Shown: in pieces, positions 2,868 to 15,117 of the stretch | Numbering within the stretch: position 1 is the first letter of the stretch | How the letters are laid out: every line of letters begins with the position of its first letter | Assembly: GCA_026026165.1 (NCBI GenBank) | Contig: JAPEUD010000107.1 | Span: forward strand, 1-53,175 | From: Sarea resinae | Taxonomy: Eukaryota | Direction of reading: 5' to 3' | DNA: 53,175 nucleotides | Notes under the pieces: generated by a model | The model's input: the letters and a program-made list of their open reading frames with translations, nothing else | Databases searched by the model: none | What the model was told of the DNA's origin: nothing | Made by a program: the position numbers and the translations under genes

Positions 2868-3332
2868 GCCTTGGCTCACTGTAATAACCTCTCGACCCTC
2901 CTTCTTTAACCCTAAGTGACGCTTAAACTCTCCTAGTGGATTTCGCCGGCCAGGCTAGCCAAATAGCTAGCAGGCTAGGCAGGCGCAGTGTATATATATA
3001 GAGAGAGCTTTTTCTTCTAGACTGTCTAGAAGTTTTTTAAAATCTTTAAACGGCGGCTAGTAGATCAGATGCAAGCAAGCCTTCTCCTTTCCTTTAAGCG
3101 CTGCGCAGGCGCCAGAGGCGAAGTGCGCTGTTAGTCTGCCTTGGCTAGCTGCAATCACCTCTTAATACCTCGAACCCTAAGTAACCCTAAGGGACAGGGC
3201 AACCCTAAGGGTGGGAAATCGACGCTGGCGGGCCAGCGATTGAACGAACAGAGGGCGGGCGCGCAGGCAAGGATCAAGGCAGCTATCAAGGTGGTTGGGT
3301 CAGTGGGCAGAGGGCGTTTTTCAACGGGCGCG

Positions 3333-3450
3333 AAAACACTGTCGAGAAAACACCGTCGATTCTCGCTTATTCTCGCTTAGGCTCGGTTCGATGCCTTAAA
3401 GAGGCGAAGATCGGCGAAAATCGGCGAGAAGACAGTGTCTTTAGCCAGTG
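3333..3450. repeat. Subterminal direct/inverted repeat cluster at element end
   Basis: AAAACAC(T/C)GTCGA x2 (3333, 3347). TTCTCGCTTA x2 (3360-3379) faces GGCGA(A/G)(G/A)A x3 at 10-bp period (3403-3430). ACACTGTC (3336) is inverted to GACAGTGT (3431). Ends CAGTG at 3446-3450. Confidence 0.75.
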
Positions 3451-3459
3451 CAATGCGGT

Positions 3460-4370
3460 TAGGCCTAAAGCACATCTAGAAAAATTAAGTATAGGATAGA
3501 AGAAGAGATAGAAAAACTCACTTTTAAAGAACCTAACTATAAAAGCCTTAGTGGCTTCTTATAAGGCATATATAGCTGATAACTAAAAATAGAGCTCTTT
3601 AAAGAGGTAGTAGTGATAAGATATAACCTTGTAGACTAGGCGCTAGAAAGAGAGCTTTAGAATGACTAAATTAACAGATTTTTACAATCTCTTAATTTTA
3701 TAGAGTGCAGATGCTGTAGTGTTTAAATATTACTATAATGTGTTACCTTTAGAGTTTAGAGACTAAGACTTACTACCTAGACAAGTGCAACAGAGTTAGA
3801 TTAGTTTAGGCACACTATAAACCTTACTACAACTATAAAAGGCAGTATCCTTATAAACCTATGCTTTTATAGCATCTTTATAGGCCTTTTAGCGTTTAGT
3901 ATATATGCTAGTAGTGAAGCGTTGTCTAGTAGCAAGACAACCTTTGTGTGCTGCTATGCTAGCTAAGTTCTTATATAGGGATTTACTACTAGTAATATAA
4001 TAAGCCTTAGTAGCAGACATTCCTTTGCCTTTTCCTTTTCCTTTCCTACTAGTACTAGAGACAGTCTTATAGGCGGTACGCTTAGTACAAGCTATTATCT
4101 AGTAAAATGTTACTATTAAGTGTTACTAGTAGAGGTAGGAAAGAATAACTTACTATATTAGTGACTATAAATATGTTAAGAGAGTAAGAGTGTAGTGTAA
4201 AGAGTGCTAAAGGAGAATCTTTAGTTAGTATTAAAGAAAGAATCTAGAGAGTTGTCTATAGTTAGGAATAATTAGCTAAGTGCCTTTATAGTCTTAAATA
4301 TTACCTAAATGTGTTACTATTAAGTAGTAGTTCTAAAACTCACTTTAACCTTAAAACTTAAAGAGCACTA
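3460..4370 (-). pseudogene. RIPed intron-containing gene of unknown function (putative hAT cargo)
   Basis: Minus-strand GT..AG intron-like segments (e.g. gtaagttattc...ttttactag near 4099-4153) and a readable peptide RTAYKTVSSTSRKGKGKGKG. No family recognised. Confidence 0.3.
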
Positions 4371-4376
4371 AGAGAG

Positions 4377-4832
4377 AAATCTTAATAATACTAATAACAG
4401 AAGTGATAAAGTTTATTAAGTCTTATTAGTTTAATAATAGAAGTGATAAAGTTAATAAGAGAGAGTAATCCTCTTGCTATAGGAGAAGGTTACTAATAAT
4501 ATAGGTAGTAAGGTTAAATTAAGTAGTAGACCTATATAATATTAAGGTAAACATTTACTATAAGGTATATACCTTAGTTAGTGTTATTAGCTAGTTAATA
4601 AGGTACATACCTTGTAGTAAATGTTATTAACTGTTTAATAAGGCATGTACCTTACAGTAAATGTTATTAACTGTTTAATAAGGTATGTACCTTCTGCCTA
4701 AATCTTGTGTGCCTAAATCTACTATATAATTCAACCTTACTACCTATATCATTAGTAACCTTCTTCTATAGCAAGAGAGTTGCTCTTTCTCTCTAATTTT
4801 ATTACTTCTGTTATTAACATTATTAAGATTTT
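4377..4832. repeat. Inverted-repeat arms enclosing a 40-bp tandem array of 14-bp palindromes
   Basis: Arm ~4377-4530 is reverse-complementary to ~4718-4832 (e.g. CTCTTGCTATAG.AGAAGGTTACTAAT.ATATAGGTAGTAAGGTT.AATT). The 40-bp units start at 4595, 4635 and 4675, with a shorter degenerate unit at 4561; each has an AAGGTATATACCTT-like palindrome. Confidence 0.85.
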
Positions 4833-4879
4833 ATCAATTTTATTAATCCTATTAACTCTCTAACTGTTTAGGCAGTAGA

Positions 4880-6860
4880 AAGTAATAAGATAGCTAGCTA
4901 ATTACTCTCTAAATCACTTATATCTTCTATAAGCTCCTCTTAAAATAAGGCAGCTATAGAGAAAACTGTTATTATAAAGAAGAGGTGAGTTCTAGACTTC
5001 TAAGTGAGATAAAAGTGAGGTAAAACTTACTTCTTCTTAGAAATCATAGCCTACTAGCAGCTTAGAGCTAAGGGTAACACATTAAGGTAATAATAGTACT
5101 ACAAAAGGCTTATATTAGTTTAGGAAACAGTAAAAGCTTAAGAAAGCTAAATCTAGCACAACTGCGCTAAGTCTAGATATAGAAGAATATAAAGACAATA
5201 ACTAACTGCTTATAGATCTTAAGGATAGGGTTATAAACAATTCCTTGTATAGTAGCAGCAGTTAGAAAGGAAGTAGTAATAAGAAGACAGATAGTAAGGC
5301 TAAGTAACGCATTTAAGTAATATATTCTGTAGATATCTGCTAATAGTGCTACTCTAGTAATAACAGCAGCGATAAAGTTAAGATAGTCTCTGTTATTAAG
5401 AAGATAAAAGCAAATTTCTTAGATAAGGTTAGAAAAGCAAAGTTTTTAGACAAAGTAAGAAAGGCTTATAAGAAGTAGAAGCAGTAATATATCCTAGTAA
5501 CACTTCTAAACACAAAGCTAATAAAGTAATAGGACTATATCTAAGAGATAGAAGCAGAAGGAGATTAACCTTAATAATAAGCTAGAGAGCTTAGACTCTT
5601 TTACTCCTAGGAAGAGACGTCTAAGGTAACACATTTAGGTAACATTATTTGCTAGTAACTAATATTAGTGCAACTTGTAGTGCAACCTCTATAACTTTCT
5701 CTCACTCTAAAGGAATATTTAACCTAGAGATAGCTAGCCTAGTTAAACGTGTAAAAGCCTGTCTATAAAGACGTTATACTAGTAAGATAAGGCCTAGGAT
5801 AATTCCTTACAACAAATAACAATAGATTGCTAGAGCGCAGCTTAAAGAAGCAAAGTCTAAAGCATTAGAGTTAGAGCTAGATAGCAAACTCAGCGATACT
5901 AAGTTTAAGAAGACACTGAAAAAAGCAGATAGAGCAAATAGGAAAGCAAAATCCACTCTAAGAGGCAAACTCTGTTATAAGAATAGTTACACTAGTATAA
6001 TAACAGCAAAACAATAAGACTTTAAAGAGACTGTTATAGACTCTAAAATAGACAAACTAATAGAACAACGCTTTTTTCTCTACTAGTCTGCTAAGTAGGT
6101 TACTATATAGTAGTAAAAGGCTATTAAGGTAAAGAAAGCAAAGGCTAAGGACAATAAGCAGATAGTTAAGGATGTTGTTAATATCTTACTACTTAAAGAT
6201 AATAGAGATAGCTAACCTAATAGTAGTGCTAATCTTAAGGTAACACTTTTAGGTAATATTTCTTTGCAGCATCTATCTAACTAGCTTAGCAGAGAGAAAA
6301 TCTAGATAAGCCTAACTTGTTATTTAGAGCATAGAGTAAACGCATTAGAAGTCGCTTGCTAAAAGTAGTTCGCTGCTATAAGAGAGACATCTACTGCTAT
6401 AGCTATAATAACCTAGTAGAAGCTAGTGATCTTAATCTAAAGGAAGCGATGTTAGAGTTTGTAGAGCAGGTTAAGGACTATACAACTCTCTCTAATAGTG
6501 ACACAAAGGCTAGGACTAATTTTACTAGGTTTAGCAATTTAGAAGCAGAAGTATTTCTATTATCTAATAAGGATATTGACCTAATATTAAGTGATAAGAA
6601 GGACTTTATACTGCTGACTATAGGAGAGAAAACTTAGCTAGAGGATATTCCTAAAAGAGAGGATATTTGTAAAGGACTTAAAGAAGAGGAATCTGCTATA
6701 ACTAGGTCTGCTATAGAGGAGCCTCTGCTAGCAACAGCTAAGAATGTTCCTATTAATACAGAGGAGAGTAAGGATAACTCTACTAATAATGCTAAAGGAG
6801 AGGACTCTAGTTCTAGTGCTACTAGAGATAGCAATAAGTAGAGAGGCAGTTATAGCTAAG
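4880..6860 (+). pseudogene. RIPed multi-intron gene of unknown function (putative hAT cargo)
   Basis: Several short GT..CTAAY..AG intron-like segments (e.g. 5626-5669, 6240-6283). Long charged reading-frame remnants include ORF 6356-6637. Confidence 0.35.
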
Positions 6861-6979
6861 TAGCTTTTCTTTATTAGTCTGTGTCTACCTAGGGGTGGAT
6901 TTTCACTTTTTCTCTAGAATTTAGTTTACTAAAAAGGTAACACTTACTAGTAACATTGTGTACATTAATCACGTTAGGA

Positions 6980-9900
6980 ATGCATATTCTCTTAATTAAA
7001 TTTTAGCTGTATAAACTCTCTCCTAATAACTCTAGTAGATAGCTGTATTGTATTACTCTCTTTATAGTCTCCTTGCTATGTTTGTTTAGTTATGCTAAAC
7101 CTAGCAACCTTTAATGTTAATATTTAAGCAAATACTTCTCTAGTTAAGGGCACTTCCTACCTCTTTACTTTGCTGTACATTCTAAGGCCTTCTGCACTTT
7201 CTTATCGCTGTAAATTTCTCCTTTACAATGTCTAATTCGTTTAAAACATTAGACTATAAAGAACTTAGAGATAATACACAAAGGTCTATAGCTATTAAGT
7301 CTAAACCTACAACTATTACTTTAGCTTTAATTCACTATGTTCTAGAGGTGTTACAAAGGGATCCTACATAGCGAATAGTTATCTAGCAACAATTATATCA
7401 TAATACTTTTATCTTCTAGTAGTAGCAGACTGCTTATACAGATATAGGTTAATATAGAAGCCCTTAATAGGATTCTAAGACGTAGAAAAGCATAACCTAG
7501 TCTCTTTTCTACTAAGTTGCTAATGTTGCAACTAGCTGCCTAAGAGTAATATGTTAACAATATAGATATTAGTAAGAGCATCCTAGTCTTAAGAGGACAA
7601 GCACTTCTGCAATAAAACAGCACTATAGCTCTCTAGAGTGTGCTTAGTCTCTTATAGCAGGTATAATACGCACACTTAAGGCTCTTTAGACTATAGTAAG
7701 ATATCGCTATATATAATAGATCTCTTAACTAATACCTCTATCCTTAATGCTAGCAATATGCTTTAGCACTAAAGACTCTCTAAACCTTAGAGCTATTCTC
7801 TTAGTTAAGCTAGTAACGCCTTCTCCTTAAGATAATTCTATTAGCAAATCTTCTATAGCAGATTATAGAAAACTACTAGTTTAAACAATGCTTCCTCCTT
7901 TACTAGCTAGGCCTTTGAATTCTAAGGCGACAATAGGTTTATAATAACATTTATAATTAATATATAGAGATCTTACTAAGGATCCTATAAAGACTAGGCC
8001 TAGAAACTAAAATTTCTATTGCATTAGATATATAGCAGAGTCTAAATAAGATATCCTTTCTTTCTATAATAGGGTATTTTATTAACAAAGACTAGAATTA
8101 CTAGGAAGTCCTCTTAGAGTTTAAAAAGATAACTAAAGAGCACTCTAGTTGCAACATAGCTATATTACTACTTAATTAACTTTAGTGTTTTAACATTTAG
8201 GTTTGTCTTTAATGTTTATAGTAACGCTTTTAGGTAACATTACATTGTAGGATTATATACTAGCTGTGACAACAGATAACACAGGCAATAACAACACAAT
8301 GCATTAAGAGCTAATAAGTCTACTTGCTAATCACTATTAGATTGTATAGGATTATAAGGTTGCTTGTATGCCTTACCTTACGCATGTTATTTAGCTTGTA
8401 GTTATAGCTTTTAATAAGTGCCTAAAAATTACTGCTTTAAACAAGTCTATATAAGATACCTAGTTAGATACAGACTAAGAGCTGCTTTAGCAGCTTCTTT
8501 CTAAAGACTCTTTTAGCAGCACGTTACAAAAGGTAAGTGCTAATAACCCTTGTCTATTACTACCTCTAAAGTTTCTAGATTTATACACTTACTATCTATA
8601 TTACTGCTTTATTACAGCAAACTACACGCTTTTGTAATCTGCAGCTAACACTAGTTAATATAATCTAAGATGTTAAAACTTAATAGAACTCAACATATAA
8701 TATGCTGAAGCAGGCCTAGCAGCTGCGAGATACTCTTTAGATGTTTCTTATTAGTAAAACTAGTCTTACTATATGTAGAACTTATGTCTCTCCTACTAGT
8801 TAGGACTATATTTGCTATCTAATTGTCTTACTAAAGCTATTTAATAATTAGACAAGAGCTGTGTCTTAGACTAAAGGCGTAACTATCTATAAGACCTAGT
8901 TTATATACTCTTAGATTTTTAAGCACTTAGAGAAGTATCTAAACAAGATGCAGCCTAAGCAGACACTCTAGAAACAAGAGCTTACTTCTGCTATAGAAGT
9001 AGCAAAGACTAAGCTCTCTAAGTACTACTAAGATACTAAAGGAGTATAAAGGAGAATGTTTAATTTAGCATGTATCTTTAATCCCTTAACAAGGCTTAAT
9101 CTATATAAAGTATATTACCTAAATCTATTACCTTTACCTTATCCTCTAGGAATGTTTTGCTAATAGCTAAGAAGTCTAATAACTAGGGCTATAAATATTT
9201 GCGAAAGTACTAGCGCAAATTTAAGGACTATTATTAGTTGCATTATATAAGAACTAAAGTTGCCTCTTTAGATGTTGCTACACTCCTTATATTAGCATTA
9301 GATGTTAATTCACTTGCATAGGCTAAGACGCTTTAGAAACAACATTGCTTTATTACAGATCTAGTTAGTTAGTATCTATCTTTGCTAGCTACAGATTATA
9401 AGGATCCTTTGCAGGTAACACTTTTAAGTAATATTTCTATATGCAGGTGCTGATATTCTACTAGTTCTAGCGATCACACTACTAGCCCTTGCTTAAACAA
9501 ATAGCAAAAGACATTCTTACTATACCTAGAGCTGCTATTAGTATTAAACAGACTTTTAATAAGGTATAAGACCTTATTACCTTTTGTTAAAGTCGCCTTT
9601 TAGCAGAAACAGTTTAGAACACTATAGTTGTAAAGCACTTTAATTGCAATAAACTCTGCTTCTATATAGGTAAAGATAAATCTAACAGTATTTCTAAGGA
9701 CACTAATTATTAACACACGCTATTAGCTGAATTTAATGATTATTTACTTGTTATTAGTAATAATAATAAGCTAACCTTTATTAATAGTAGGCCTGCAATA
9801 TAGGATAACATAGACCTGTATAGGTTTTCTAGTAATAAGCACTCTTTACTACTTCTACCTCTACCTATAGTGCAGCTAGATAAACCTGCTTTTTAGCAGC
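6980..9900 (+). pseudogene. RIP-inactivated hAT (Ac/Restless/Tfo1-like) transposase
   Basis: Relic motifs occur in the expected order: KISIALDI*QS...GYFINKD*NY*EVLL (~8010-8120; DxWT), LAVTTDNTGNN (~8260), PYLTHVI*LVV (~8370; CxxH), I*DVKT**NSTYNML (~8660; TRWNST), IAKDILTIPRAAISIKQTFN (~9500-9560; C-terminal dimerisation). Ends approximate. Confidence 0.88.
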
Positions 9901-10394
9901 AGTCTTTACTTTAACGCTCTAAGTATAACAACGCTTAATCTATATTGTCTTAAAGAAAGCGCCTGCGTTTAACTATAGATAATTTATTTATTAGGTTAAA
10001 GGTATAGAGGCTCTCTTCTAGAACTAGTCTATTTCCTTCTTAATTATGTGAATAGTTACACTTATAGTAGTTTGCTTTGTATATACTACAGCATATATTT
10101 ATCTCTATTAGAGTAGAATTAGTTCTAGTAAAACATGCTATATTATAAAGGTTTAAAGAATGATTTAGTGGTTTTTATATAGTGTAGATTATGTAGGACA
10201 CTATAAACTAAATATATAGAGTGTATTATTATACTATTATTCTTATTCTACAGTTCCTATAGTTTTATTGTATTTACCCTCTAGATATTACCTCTATATA
10301 TTACTTTTTAATAATCTTATCTTATTAATCTACTCCTTATCTTATTAATTAACCTGTATATACCTAATAGGTAGGCTGTAGGCTCTACAGCTAA

Positions 10395-10492
10395 TTAAGC
10401 CTGCCTAAACCTAACCTGATTATGTAATCAGGCGGGCTAACCTGCCTAAACCTTAATTTAGGCTAAGTACCTAAACCTAAGTAGATAGCCTA
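10395..10492 (+). repeat. Putative right terminus (TIR + subterminal repeats) of the hAT element
   Basis: Repeated CCTGCCTAAACC/CCTAAACCTAA (RIPed CCCG..CCCGA-like units). The end ...GTAGATAGCCTA reads TAGGCTATCTAC on the minus strand, resembling TAGG(G)-starting hAT TIRs. Confidence 0.55.
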
Positions 10493-13400
10493 GTTAAAAG
10501 CAAGGTTTTATAAGATAATTATAATTATAATCCTACTTAGCGCAATCCTACTTTCTGCTAGCCTAGCTAGCTAATCACTATTAAGTAATAAGAGTATATA
10601 CTATATAATCTAACTTTAATTGCAAGTTGTAATATAGTTAGGTTTTACCTTTACCTCTTTCTTCTTATATAACGTTTCTATATAAACAGAGTCTTTCTTA
10701 GGTCCTAGGTTATATTTAAGATCTAGCATTCTTTTTAATATCTGAAATATCTTTTCTTCTATTACCTTTAGCGCCTAGAATTATCTGATTAGGCTCTCTA
10801 ACTTCTAGTTAGTCTAAGAGTTTATATCTAGACTTTATAACATTTTTAAAGGCTTATCTATTTGCATTACACTTTCTATTAAGTCTTTTTCTTTTATATC
10901 TTTTACAACTAATTATATAGGCGCTATAGACACTTGCTTAAGGTAGTGCCTTCTACCTAGTTTTTTAAATAGTTAGGAAATATATTATTATATATATAGT
11001 CTAAAGTGCACTCTATCTAAGCAGCGCTAAACATCCTTAACCTCTTCTAGTCCTTAGAGAAGATAGTATATATAGTTGTCCTATCTTCTTTAACCTTTGT
11101 TCTTATCTAGGATACAATCTAGTATAGCTATCTAAGAACAAGCATTTAATTAGAATAATTAGCAATAAAGATTAGCACCTATATAATAACCTCTCTAACT
11201 TTAACTTTAACTACTTCTATATATCTAACAAATGCTGTAGGTTTTCTATTAATACTAACTATAGTAGTAGCTAGATTTAGAGTCTAGCTAATACTAATAT
11301 TCTATACTATCTTAAGACTTATTAGATAGATCTTAGCTCTACTATCTAGAAGAGCTCTAGTCTATAGATTTCTTTCTATACTTATATCTGCTATTATATA
11401 GCCTGCTATATATAGCACATCCTTTATTAGTTCTTAATCCTAATAATTTAGGCTAAATACCTTTCTAACTATTACTAGTCTTTAAGAGGCATTCTCTTTT
11501 AAGTCTTATAACTTGTTTTCTTTACTTCTAGATAGCAATTAATATATTGCTTTAATCTAGTCTTTTGCTAGCTATTTAAAGAAAATCTTTTAGATATCTA
11601 AAGAATATCTTAAGAGCTCTTAAATAGTTATATATGCTAGCAGTTAATTAAAGATCCTTCTAACTAGTCCTATAGGATTTAATTCTTCTTTTAGTATATC
11701 TAATAGTTGCCTTTGCCTTTGCTTCTTATTTAATGCTTAATTTATTTCTATCTCCTCTAGGACTTTAAACTTTACCTCTTTTAAAGTCCTAGATAGTCTA
11801 GATATTTATTAATCTTTATCTATCCTTATATATATAATATCTCTCTTCTTAGTATACTAGTTTCTCTAATAGGTTCTTAGATAGATATTCTTTACAGCTA
11901 AGAGTTTATCTTCTTTTATAATCCTTTGTTTCTATACTCTACTCTAAGAGTTAAAAACCTTCTTACTTTAAGTAGAGTCTAATCTATATCTTAAAATCTT
12001 CTCTAGTTAATATACTGCCTAAACTAAGGCAGGGTTTTTATTATCTTCTACCTCTTTATTAGTATTATTAGCTTATAAGTCTCTTGCACTAATAGAGGCA
12101 ATATAAATAGAGTTAACTCTAATTTCTTCTTTACACTAATTATACTACTTCTTATATTCTCGCTTAGTAAATATAGCGCGATATTCTCCTCTAAAAATCT
12201 TTAATTTAGGTCTGCTACTTTCTTTAAGTCTTAGGCACATTCTATTTTGCTTATTAAAGTAGATTTTAGAATAGGTAAGTAACTATCTAATTATAAGGCA
12301 ATTAGTAACGCTATAGTTAGTTCTTCTACACTCTTAATATCCTAGTATAAGTAATTTGCTATTGTTCCTAGCTAAGGCTATTATAGCACTAGGTGCTAGT
12401 TAAGCATTTACTAGTCTATTCTATATTACACCTTAGTTCTATAATATAGGTAGAGAGGTAAGCAGCTTAGCTATTATTATTACATTCTTATTTGCTACTT
12501 TAACTAGTAGAATAAGATTTGCAAGCTAGGTAGTAATATCCTTAATAGCCTTATTAGTCTTAGTAGTAGTAGTTGTCTAAGTTAGCTTAGAAGTTACTAG
12601 AGGCTTAAGTAACTTAGTAGAGTTAGTCTTTAGAGTAGGCTTCTAGTTCTTAATTATTAGTTATACTATCTTAGTTAGTTCTTTTTTATTAAGCTTTTAA
12701 AAGGCTTAGATAGATTTGCATTGTTTAATAGCAAGGTTATATACTTTCTTAAAGTTAAAGTTAGTAATGCTATATTTATTAAGGTTAATATAACTATAAG
12801 AGATAACTTTAGCTTATATAGTCTCTAGAAGACCTTATAGAAACTAAAGAAGGTAAGAGTATCTATTAAGTTTATTTTTCTAGATAAGATTATAAGAGAT
12901 GCTTATAAACTAGCAGCAGTAATAGCGAATTTCCTTAGCTGTCTTCTAAGCTCTAGTTCTATTCTTTAAAGCTTTAAAATAGGTATAAGAGTTAATCTAC
13001 TACTCTATATCCTAATTAGTATATTCCTATAGTAAGGACTTTTTAAATTCTTTCTAGTTAGTTTTAAATTCTAGTATTATCTTAATATTCCTTGTAATAA
13101 TACTCTTATAGTAGTATAGCAGCCTCTTAAACACTTTCTCTACACTAAGCTAGTAGTCTATATATATTCCTTTATATTGCTTAAGAAACTTAGTAGTATT
13201 AACTCTAGTAAAATAAGGCACGCTATAACTTCTAAAAGAGAGTATAGGCTATATATATTAAGGGCTAGAAGACTCTACAGTGCTTTCTCTTAATAGAGTA
13301 AGAATTGCTAGAGTTAACTCTATAATAAGACTTATGTTTAAGCTAGTAGATAATAAAGATATAGCAGCAATAATAGCTAGTGTAAGAATCTTTATAGTTT

Positions 13401-15117
13401 CTTAAACAATCTAAAGAATGACTTTTTTTAATATATAGTAGCAACTTTTTCTTCTTATTCTCTCTTTCTCTTAAAAAGTCTCTCTCTTTACTCTTTACTA
13501 TTACTATTTATTTGTGTTGTTTTATTAGAGGTACCTCTCTACCTTAGAGAGGTTTGTATAAGAACTCTACTTACTTGTTTACTAATAATAGTAAAGAACT
13601 TATCTAATTTATTAACATTGCATTATATTGTTTAGCTTCTTATTTAATTATAGAGTTAAGTTCTATAATAAGTCTAGGTTATTATATAACTATTAGACTG
13701 TCTAGAAGTTTGCTAAGAGTGTAATCTCTAATCTAAATCTAAAGCACTCTTTCTCTAATTTATAGAGTCTCTAGCAGCTCTATTTAAATAGCTTTAACTA
13801 ATCTAATCTGTTTAGTAGTTAATAGTATTAATATCCTATCTTCTTTACTAATATATTACTCTTTCTAATTTAACATGCTGTTTTAATCTATATTGTTATA
13901 TACTTAGTAGTATTACACTTAACTATATAAATATAAACAGTTTAAGCTCTATATAGGTTACTACTATAGAGAGATAAAATAGACGCACTAAATTAGTGCT
14001 AAAGTAGAACACTTAGACAGTCCTAATAACTCTTTATATAGTTAATAAGATAGCTATAATAACTACTTAATAACCTACTACTAAAGTATAATTAGTAGAA
14101 TAGTATAAAGTAGAGAGATTAGAAGGTAACTACTCTTTTAAGAAAGAAGTAGTAAGAGAACTCTTAATTAATTAATTTAACTAAGGAATAAAGAACTACA
14201 CTACACTCTTTAGAAATATAAAGATCTAACTAAACTAAACTGTATAAATAACCTTCTAAATATAAATCCTTCTACCTATTACTAAATTAAATCCTATACT
14301 AAAGAACACCTATATAACTACTAACTAAGCTAAACCTAACTAATTTATCCTATAATAACGCTTAATAAACTGCCTTATTACTTAATAAATTATAAGCTAT
14401 TAAAGATCGCCTCTTACCTCTTTAGATAAATAGCTAACGCCTAACTATTTTAATAATAAGATCTAGTTAGTCTAGAAGAATTTCTTATAGTGTAATCTCT
14501 AAACTTTATATCTTTATTTCTAAATTCTTTTAGAGTCTTTATAATTCCTACTTCTTATCTCTCTTATATTATACTAATCTTCTATAGTCTTAATTATACA
14601 GGCTAGGTTTTATACTAGCCTTATAGATCTAGCAACCCTTCTATATATCCTTTAAGTAGTGTTTATACTTATTTGTAAAGCACTTTCTAGTTAAATCTAT
14701 ATTGTTTAAGCCCTATATAGGTTACTAATATAAGTGATTAAACTAGATCGCACTAGATAAGTGCTAGATAGTCCTAAAGATATAGGAACTACTAAATTGT
14801 AATAGCGCTACTATACTTAATATTTGCTAAGTGTGTTACTATCTTAGGTCTTACTACTAATATATCTTAGAGAACTTAAATAGGTAGTAGAATAAATATA
14901 TTAATTAATATAAGGTATTAGCCTATAGCCTTACAACTAAGTAATAAGAAGAAGAGAAGAAAACTAACGCGCTAACTGCTTGCTTAACTAACTGCTAGAA
15001 ACTAATAACTAAATACATATATAAAGAACTCCTAATACCTTCTTTCTAACTCCTAAGAAACACAACCCCACCACCGACGCCTGATGACTAAGCTATTGCT
15101 GATTTTACTCTATCACA
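10493..15117 (-). mobile_element. RIPed Ty3/Gypsy LTR retrotransposon remnant (5' LTR + gag), cut by the hAT insertion
   Basis: The minus-strand relic VPYFTRVNTTKFLKQYKGIYIDY*LSVEKVFKRLLYY (~13115-13225) resembles a fungal Gypsy gag N-terminus. Right boundary is ...TATCACA (TG...CA LTR end) at 15117. Confidence 0.62.
14834..15117 (-). repeat. Putative 5' LTR of the Gypsy element
   Basis: Bounded by TGTTAC (14834) and ATCACA (15117) at the RIP/non-RIP boundary. The partner LTR is not in the window. Confidence 0.4.

Follow-up and report, generated by a model that had tools for sequence, protein, structure and literature searches.

How does one 21-nucleotide (nt) sequence come to lie in the introns of three genes of different origins? 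The question is raised by a stretch of 53,175 nt from Sarea resinae (GenBank assembly GCA_026026165.1, contig JAPEUD010000107.1, positions 1 to 53,175 of the forward strand; hereafter the window), in which a hAT transposon, heavily altered through repeat-induced point mutation (RIP), holds a histone H3-like gene (H3L), a central open reading frame (ORF) and a transposase gene. The source of new spliceosomal introns is still unsettled, and multiplying introns have their main model in fungi of this general kind. A preliminary description of the sequence reported a bipartite motif, GTAACAC-N6-GTAAYATT, in introns of all three genes, and offered two accounts of it: homologous, introner-like introns that proliferate within the element, or regularly spaced protein-binding sites hidden in introns. 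We show herein that the motif is real, non-random and confined to one element within the window, and that its copies lie in introns, where they occupy two kinds of position. A tentative reading, to which we give a probability of roughly 45%, is that the motif is an element-specific intron cassette of two GUAAC boxes, a hybrid of donor and branch site that may be used as either signal and that would have spread by duplication within the lineage of the element.

All ten copies that the preliminary description placed on one or the other strand were recovered, seven of them exact and three with one or two mismatches, as was a degenerate reverse copy at 9111-9131 on the minus strand. The claim that the GTAA half-sites always stand 13 bp apart held for 13 of 13 pairs found with a relaxed pattern, among them two further copies (5484-5504, plus strand; 10284-10304, minus strand). 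The 13 copies are the following.

3726 to 3746, minus strand: exact copy; +28 to +48 of a 60-nt coding intron of H3L.
4106 to 4126, minus strand: exact copy; +28 to +48 of a 55-nt candidate intron in the 5' untranslated region (UTR) of H3L.
4297 to 4317, minus strand: exact copy; +27 to +47 of a 51-nt candidate 5'UTR intron of H3L.
5074 to 5094, plus strand: copy with one mismatch; 3' end (+90 to +110) of a putative first intron of the central ORF, 112 nt long.
5304 to 5324, plus strand: copy with two mismatches; intron 5304-5357 has its donor in the first GT of this copy.
5484 to 5504, plus strand: GTAATAT-N6-GTAACAC, with the half-sites swapped; the first GT serves intron 5484-5532 as its donor.
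5626 to 5646, plus strand: exact copy; donor of intron 5626-5668.
6240 to 6260, plus strand: exact copy; donor of intron 6240-6289.
6937 to 6957, plus strand: exact copy between the stop of the central ORF and the ATG of the transposase; candidate 41-nt 5'UTR intron 6937-6977.
8221 to 8241, plus strand: copy with one mismatch; +21 to +41 of transposase intron 8201-8250.
9111 to 9131, minus strand: degenerate antisense copy within a candidate plus-strand intron, 9110-9149.
9415 to 9435, plus strand: exact copy; donor of transposase intron 9415-9464.
10284 to 10304, minus strand: RIP-altered antisense copy, GTAATAT-N6-GTAATATC, downstream of the transposase relic and outside any recognised gene.

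The seven exact matches (3726, 4106 and 4297 on the minus strand; 5626, 6240, 6937 and 9415 on the plus strand) are the only ones in the window, and all fall within 3726-9435; none of 100 dinucleotide-preserving shuffles contained any. When up to two mismatches were allowed, 11 matches were found in the window, whereas the shuffles averaged 0.19 and never exceeded 1; ten of these lie inside 3726-9435, and the eleventh, a weak match at 14819 on the minus strand, lies outside the element. The relaxed form GTAAY-N8-GTAAY occurs 13 times, every time within 3729-10304 and nowhere else in the window, as compared with 0.16 on average, and never more than 3, in 300 third-order Markov simulations of 3440-10400. 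Pairs of half-sites exactly 13 nt apart thus number 13, and no other distance up to 40 nt is represented by more than two pairs. The adjoining RIPed block (10451-15050), with 29 half-sites, contains no 13-nt pair; the 38-kb part of the window that is normal in GC content and bears genes, with 74 half-sites, contains no such pair and no copy of the motif. The motif is therefore not equally frequent in shuffled or in other RIPed DNA. Moreover, its absence from 38 kb of host genes and from the neighbouring RIPed block indicates that it is specific to the element and is not an intron signal of the host. A scan of a metagenome collection for GTAACRCWTTTARGTAAYATT returned six loci, on unrelated AT-rich contigs, each with a single copy (one of them with two relaxed copies); this is close to a rough hand estimate for chance, and so relatives of the element were not found there. 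Within the element, 11 of the 13 copies are in sense orientation (two-sided binomial probability about 0.02, calculated by hand), and their orientation flips at a symmetric core at 4.4-4.8 kb, so that, as had been proposed, the motif largely follows the direction of transcription. The distance from the start of one copy to the start of the next is irregular, ranging from 142 to 1284 nt.

An alignment of the copies yields the consensus R-GTAACAC-WT-NN-WR-GTAACAT-T, in which position -1 is always a purine. In an ungapped alignment of 13 rows, information content is high at -1 to +9 and at +12 to +22 and falls to background directly outside; one of the 13 rows is mis-anchored by 3 nt, an error that lowers these values and does not raise them. 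The second box at 3729 and at 4300 has C in most other genomic copies of the element and T, the product of RIP, in the copy in the window. The ancestral motif is therefore GTAACAC-N6-GTAACATT, with the Y ancestrally C. In five copies the similarity extends further, into a T-rich stretch and a TG-YAG that ends about 30 nt from the start, and 6238-6263 and 9413-9438 are 96% alike over 26 nt. No stable structure was predicted when 12 of the introns were folded (z-scores from -0.81 to +1.91, positive in 11 of 12), with the caveat that RIP may have erased pairing; if the intron RNAs are unstructured as predicted, the GUAAC boxes would be accessible. The introns at 5304 and 5626 also resemble each other in their tails and in the first bases of the following exon (CTAATA..AGTGCWAC; 5340-5365 and 5655-5685), a likeness that hints at a segmental duplication inside the central ORF. 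Of the forkhead, bZIP, PUF, Nrd1 and Mmi1 motifs, none is known to fit the R-GTAAC box.

The element that carries these copies is a RIP-mutated, multi-copy hAT transposon, as judged from its sequence. Its recognisable parts are as follows.

3520 to 4020, minus strand: RIP-killed relic of the H3L gene, of which the 3' end is either lost or no longer recognisable.
4377 to 4831, no strand: palindromic core between the divergent H3L gene and central ORF, with 100-nt inverted arms and three tandem 40-bp repeats.
5097 to 6840, plus strand: relic of the lysine-rich central ORF, in its spliced frame.
7229 to 9800, plus strand: relic of the hAT transposase gene; the end coordinate is approximate.

These parts stand in an AT-rich block of about 3.4-15 kb with RIP indices of 1.6-2.05 (TpA/ApT) and 0.25-0.85 ((CpA+TpG)/(ApC+GpT)). 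Among the contigs of one public DNA run, 2587 pieces matched 3200-10450 at 80% likeness or more and covered all 30 bins of that interval, as compared with one and no matching contigs in two runs of other organisms from the same study. Between copies, the transitions A>G (164), T>C (155), C>T (129) and G>A (123) far outnumber the transversions, of which there are 51 in all. The many contigs and the almost exclusive occurrence of transitions indicate that the element is a multi-copy family that has been diversified by RIP in its genome. A ciliate-like code or an origin with tiny introns, which the abundance of TAA and TAG and a unit of about 30 nt had brought to mind, was rejected: transitions dominate, the RIP indices are typical, and models with 30-nt introns fail. 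Because the element in the window is a relic killed by RIP, nothing in it is expected to function now.

With stops read as X, 3520-4020 on the minus strand matched Pfam Histone at an E-value of 0.00096, below the cutoff. Against protein chains of known structure (PDB), 170 distinct sequences matched H3L at an E-value of 1 or less, and the best 60 of the 170 were all histone H3 (best E-value 5.1e-6). A word-seeded protein search with the RIP-read-through frame of H3L considered 15 candidates and gave no match, and 3341-3478 on the minus strand, tried as the last exon of H3L, was rejected since it has no match to H3. The transposase relic matched 17 proteins at an E-value of 0.001 or less in an exhaustive HMMER search (best 1.7e-8). 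The hAT protein P0010 (659 residues) aligned with it in four collinear high-scoring segment pairs (HSPs) of a tblastn search, at 7823-8197, 8185-8535, 8654-9109 and 9486-9644. P0010 has a Dimer_Tnp_hAT match at an E-value of 3.1e-14, spanning residues 533-608, to which the last HSP corresponds (residues 559-611); P0005 has a zf-BED domain (BED finger). A direct Pfam match of the relic to the dimerisation domain is weak (13.2 bits against a cutoff of 21.4), and a word-seeded search with the RIP-read-through frame of the transposase found no match at an E-value of 0.001 or less among 4147 candidates. The central ORF showed no recognisable family, either in Pfam or when its C-terminus was compared with longer proteins (927 candidates, no match); a 100-residue open stretch of it reached a best score of 0.82 in a protein atlas, below the level counted as a lead. 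The arms of the palindromic core (4431-4530 and 4718-4817) are 85% complementary, and each of its 40-bp repeats (4576-4693) contains the palindrome AAGGTAYRTACCTT; the core is probably a bidirectional promoter. Rfam gave three sub-threshold, miRNA-like hairpin matches in 4549-4664 and none at the motif.

That the segments which bear the motif are spliceosomal introns in all three genes, as the preliminary description held, is supported by three kinds of comparison: the restoration of homology, alignment scores against P0010, and the opening of a reading frame. The introns concerned, together with candidates of similar build, are these.

3714 to 3773, minus strand: H3L intron of 60 nt, GTAAGT...CAG.
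4099 to 4153 and 4293 to 4343, minus strand: candidate 5'UTR introns of H3L, with the motif near the 3' end.
4985 to 5096, plus strand: candidate first intron of the central ORF, with the motif near the 3' end.
5304 to 5357, 5484 to 5532, 5626 to 5668 and 6240 to 6289, plus strand: introns of the central ORF with the motif at the 5' end; their excision leaves one frame with few stops.
6937 to 6977, plus strand: candidate intron of 41 nt in the 5' leader of the transposase, with the motif at the 5' end.
8201 to 8250, plus strand: transposase intron of 50 nt, GTTTGT...GTAG.
8533 to 8578, plus strand: transposase intron of 46 nt without the motif, GTAAGT...CTAG, at a change of frame between P0010 HSPs.
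9110 to 9149, plus strand: candidate intron, GTATAT...CTAG, which holds the antisense copy 9111-9131.
9415 to 9464, plus strand: transposase intron, best model 50 nt.

In H3L, excision of 3714-3773 restores ..LG-T-SALYKIKRLQKS, which matches ..PG-T-VALREIRRYQKS of histone H3 at the PGTVAL junction. In the transposase, excision of 8201-8250 lifts the P0010 alignment score to 259 from 144 and lets the alignment run across the junction; the 30-nt intron beginning at the GT of the motif at 8221, which was the model implied by the preliminary description, leaves the score at 144, the same as that of the unspliced sequence. For the intron at 9415, the P0010 score is 104 with a length of 50 nt, 91 with 32 nt, 89 with 83 nt and 31 with no intron, and removal of 9415-9464 joins ..DPLQ|FW.., which aligns with ..DLLE FW.. 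of P0010. The central ORF behaves alike: unspliced, it has 57-83 stops in every frame, and with the four introns excised, one frame has 18 stops in 515 codons as against 50 and 107 in the other two. Excision of units of about 30 nt at three of the four sites (with 5484-5532 kept as above) again leaves 51-81 stops per frame. These four introns begin at the first G of the motif and end after a CTAAY box and YAG. The lengths deduced for introns bearing the motif are 41, 43, 49, 50, 50, 50, 51, 54, 55, 60 and 112 nt.

All 11 sense copies border on one end of their putative introns, six with their start at +1 and five with their end 2-12 nt ahead of the AG. In the first class, of five or six introns (5304, 5484, 5626, 6240, 9415 and probably 6937), the first GT of the motif is the donor. 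In the second, of five introns (with the copies at 3726, 4106, 4297, 5074 and 8221), a canonical GTRAGT or GTTTGT donor stands 20-89 nt upstream, followed by 14-21 nt (83 in the 112-nt intron), the motif, 2-12 nt and AG. The earlier statement that the motif often supplies the donor GT thus applies to the first class and not to the second. Nine GT[AG]AGT hexamers occur in the element; four of them, which stand upstream of a sense copy by 26-89 nt, are donors of the second class. Each of the three H3L introns of this class (3773, 4153 and 4343, minus strand) has the start of the motif 26-27 nt past the G of the donor, so that the heads are almost equal in length although they differ in sequence.

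We infer from this arrangement that the 21-nt motif would be the common core of a family of short spliceosomal introns peculiar to this lineage of hAT elements with H3L and the central ORF, and that the cassette would be a pair of R|GUAAC(A) boxes with a spacing of exactly 13 nt. The fungal donor consensus is GUAAgu and the branch-site consensus is cUAAC. Since GUAAC overlaps both, the cassette could supply whichever splice signal an intron lacks. In introns that start with the motif, the first GU, at +1, would be read as the donor, and a separate CTRAY branch site and a YAG 13-33 nt later would complete the intron. In introns that end with it, the canonical donor would come first and the UAAC boxes, which lie 6-21 nt from the AG by hand count, would be the branch-site candidates that appear best placed by eye. 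The transposase, the captured histone and the central ORF differ in origin, which suggests that the cassette was copied into or between their introns in the course of the element's history, since thirteen separate origins of one 21-mer in such genes are not credible; shared origin of the cores is the simplest account of a rigid 21-nt block in genes of three origins, and to that extent the proposal of homologous introns stands. After copying, the cassette may have been kept by a constraint related to splicing, and the sharp edges of the motif favour such a constraint over mere recency. Sense copies flush with intron ends, the strand bias, the absence from host genes and the predicted single-stranded RNA point to splicing and not to DNA binding.

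Several points weigh against this reading. Splicing is deduced from homology and reading frames. GUAACA is without the G at +5 of the fungal donor consensus, and GUAAC has a G where branch sites have a C, so that in neither role does it represent a consensus signal. Two boxes at rigid spacing exceed what a splice signal needs and resemble the binding site of a protein with two subunits. Two copies (9111-9131 and 10284-10304) are antisense, and for the putative intron 9110-9149, which contains one of them, the surrounding frames leave a discrepancy of 1 nt. Finally, two introns of the element (8533-8578 and, on the minus strand, about 3476-3521) are without the motif.

The resemblance to a two-subunit site leads to an alternative that we regard as unlikely: the motif may not be a core splice signal and may instead be a regulatory site in RNA, bound in tandem by a protein or a small nuclear ribonucleoprotein (snRNP) that would control the splicing of all pre-mRNAs of the element together. 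The binding factors might be two U1 snRNPs on pseudo-donors, a KH protein of the branch-point-binding kind on two UAAC half-sites, or a factor of the element itself, such as the lysine-rich product of the central ORF. The somatic block to splicing of P-element intron 3 by pseudo-5' splice sites offers an analogy. The equality of the two half-sites, their rigid 13-nt spacing, the sharp edges of conservation and the unstructured RNA would all be expected of such a site, as would the sense bias and the limitation to introns across all three genes. In addition, the second box in introns that begin with the motif offers an alternative donor 13 nt downstream, the use of which would shift the frame. 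However, no factor that binds the motif is known, the central ORF could be placed in no family, two copies are antisense, and the coincidence of the motif's start with the donor in at least four introns supported by reading frame is simpler if the motif is itself the donor. A site in DNA, bound by the transposase, the H3-like histone, the product of the central ORF or a host factor, and tolerated only in introns, seems to us rather improbable, whether it served transpososome assembly, chromatin marking or as an enhancer. Bipartite direct repeats of rigid spacing are typical of DNA to which proteins bind, the copies are spread over the whole element, and the two antisense copies, one in a plus-strand intron and one outside recognised genes, also favour such a site. 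Yet a DNA site has no reason to begin at the G of a donor or to end just before an acceptor, nor to lie in sense orientation in 11 of 13 cases. The known sites of hAT transposases are subterminal, and the binding repeats of Ac and Hermes lie within a few hundred base pairs of the ends, in both orientations. Although the present motif is like these in being short and repeated many times in a hAT element, its copies extend over 6.6 kb (3726-10304), at intron ends and mostly sense, and so do not belong with them. No convincing terminal inverted repeat (TIR) or subterminal copy was found, and the irregular intervals between copies do not bear out the suggestion of regularly spaced binding sites.

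Two further accounts invoke copying or chance. The motif could be a functionless trace of recent duplication, in which a unit of about 30 nt or whole introns were copied shortly before the element spread, by reverse splicing, templated filler DNA or segmental duplication. Some copies are indeed alike beyond the motif, as in the two 26-nt segments, the five copies with TG-YAG and the tails at 5304 and 5626, and near-identical introns within one or a few genes are known in fungi from the parts of the literature at hand (PMC3609843). Against this, similarity that decays neutrally should have blurred edges, yet information content reaches background within 1-2 nt of the block in the ungapped register; the heads and tails of the introns are unrelated while the block is 80-100% conserved, and the block always stands at an intron end. 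We hold this account to be as doubtful as a site in DNA. That AT-rich, RIP-mutated sequence produced the motif by chance can hardly be credited at all. It is true that the motif is rich in AT and that RIPed DNA abounds in TpA-rich words, but the shuffles, the Markov maximum of 3 against 13 and the 4.6 kb of adjacent RIPed DNA refute it as controls, and the single matches in the metagenome collection are about as many as the rough estimate allows for chance. A bolder extension of the intron-cassette reading, which we consider quite improbable, is that the GT...YAG unit of about 30 nt (two GUAAC boxes, a short pyrimidine stretch and YAG) would be a minimal cassette that copies itself. Being too short for splicing on its own, it would make use of a donor upstream of it, or of a branch site and acceptor downstream, and so seed or remodel introns; in this way it would have colonised all three genes, including the captured histone.

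The surroundings of the element contain other repeats. On the left, contig ends are loose at 3461-3463 and diverge in both directions, which indicates that the element is truncated there or abuts another repeat, and that two different repeat families meet at this point. The GC-rich segment 3200-3461 is matched by many contigs and is not RIPed. Its part at 3330-3440 contains short tandem direct repeats (GAAAACACYGTCGA twice, TTCTCGCTTA twice and ATCGGCGARAA twice) that look like the subterminal repeats of some DNA transposon. Degenerate, telomere-like CCCTAA units lie at 3165-3215 (aaccctaagtaaccctaaggga...caaccctaaggg), a direct repeat of 63 nt, its units 270 nt apart with 76% identity, at 2830-2892 and 3100-3162, and tandem repeats of the CTCTTGCTC type, 9-12 nt long, at 2721-2801. 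The segment 1-3000 is GC-rich yet laden with TAG and CTA (TpA/ApT 1.3-1.8); its look is that of some other repeat, lightly RIPed in this copy, and not that of a host gene. An 18-bp palindrome, TTCTAGACTGTCTAGAAG, occurs outside the hAT element at 958-975, 3015-3032 and 13691-13708, with two of the three exact and 0.12 matches expected; another repeat family may have its ends or internal sites there. A search for TIRs that tolerates RIP (degenerate 13-mer) gave 79 matches, at chance level, and no target-site duplication (TSD) of 8 bp. The pair 3249-3263 and 10269-10283 (CAGAGGG...) was rejected, since it has no TSD and the loose contig ends place its left member in a different repeat. On the right, the six frames of 9700-15100 gave no Pfam match, and the rest of the AT-rich block shows no similarity to the hAT element (scores of 32-33 as against 26-31.5 for shuffles). 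The segment 10451-15050 is a heavily RIPed repeat of a family not recognised, without a copy of the motif.

The preliminary description knew of no fungal hAT element of this architecture, a statement that has to be divided: the three-gene architecture is already known, and the intronic motif was not found in print. Manning et al. 2013 (PMC3538342) described an H3L transduplicating hAT element of about 5.6 kb in Pyrenophora tritici-repentis, with a three-gene layout, many copies and introns shown by expressed sequence tags. As far as the available parts of that paper go, the present element is like it in joining an H3-like gene, a central ORF and a hAT transposase in one repeated unit, a kinship of gene content alone. 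The Pyrenophora copies are about 5.6 kb long, nearly identical and not RIPed, whereas the copy in the window has undergone heavy RIP, measures at least 6.8 kb and is cut short at about 3462. The passages of the paper at hand do not mention an intronic motif, its PDF supplements lying outside that comparison. Dhillon et al. 2019 (PMC6710886) reported hAT elements that captured H3 in Pseudocercospora, Cercospora and Sphaerulina (Mycosphaerellaceae), killed by RIP and with H3 copies described as intronless. In the portions of that report at hand, these resemble the present element as hATs with RIP-killed H3-like copies, AT-rich blocks and high copy number; no other structural features are reported there, and the word "motif" is absent from that text. 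Their six consensus sequences contain GTAACAC 0 times, GTGTTAC once, GTAACATT once and AATGTTAC 0 times, counts from which the line wrapping of the file could hide a few. Being essentially without the motif, they appear to represent a different hAT family. Searches of the literature by the 21-mer string and by topic, with the PDF supplements of PMC3538342 outside their scope, found no description of the intronic motif.

Introns that multiply in fungi have been described in several forms. Collemare et al. (2013, PMC3609843; 2015, PMC4457414) treat duplicates within one gene, near-identical introns of low copy number and introner-like elements, and the accessible sections of the first paper characterise the last as hundreds of near-identical copies that are longer than regular introns and form stable structures. 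Set against that account, the suggestion that the present introns are introner-like does not hold. Near-identity does not extend over whole introns, conservation being restricted to -1 to +22 and reaching no more than about 30 nt in five copies; the lengths are ordinary (41-112 nt), and stable structures are not predicted (11 of 12 z-scores positive). No copy occurs in the host genes of the 38-kb part of the window, the introns with the motif lie inside one transposon, and the core may stand at either end of the intron. The present case is closer to the near-identical introns of the same gene or of low copy number, for which shared sequence at different positions or in different genes implies duplication of introns, so far as the consulted text goes (PMC3609843); the taxonomic setting, Dothideomycetes, may be similar too. 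Fekete et al. 2021 (PMC8469720) described the proliferating sister (stw)introns of Hypoxylaceae, which are spliceosomal introns of a filamentous ascomycete and form families of similar sequence at new positions in genes. According to the sections at hand, these are symmetrical, with terminal inverted repeats of 45-55 nt, whereas the motif of the element is a direct repeat with a period of 13 nt, without symmetry and without predicted structure.

The interest of the locus is that a rigid intron core is common to three genes that do not share an origin, among them a captured histone H3 gene, the normal structure of which is well known. If the captured gene gained its introns, or had them converted, after capture, the event would be datable and open to dissection; a similarly built element has intact, expressed copies in another species, according to the available parts of PMC3538342. 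If the motif is a binding site, it would represent a new kind of self-regulation of a transposon. For the RIP-dead locus itself, there is no functional consequence. The apparent use of GUAAC at either end of the intron would, if true, be an unusual case of one cis-element with two roles in splicing. And if the unit were indeed a cassette that copies itself, a hAT element would be the vehicle, and possibly the source, of intron gain in fungi.

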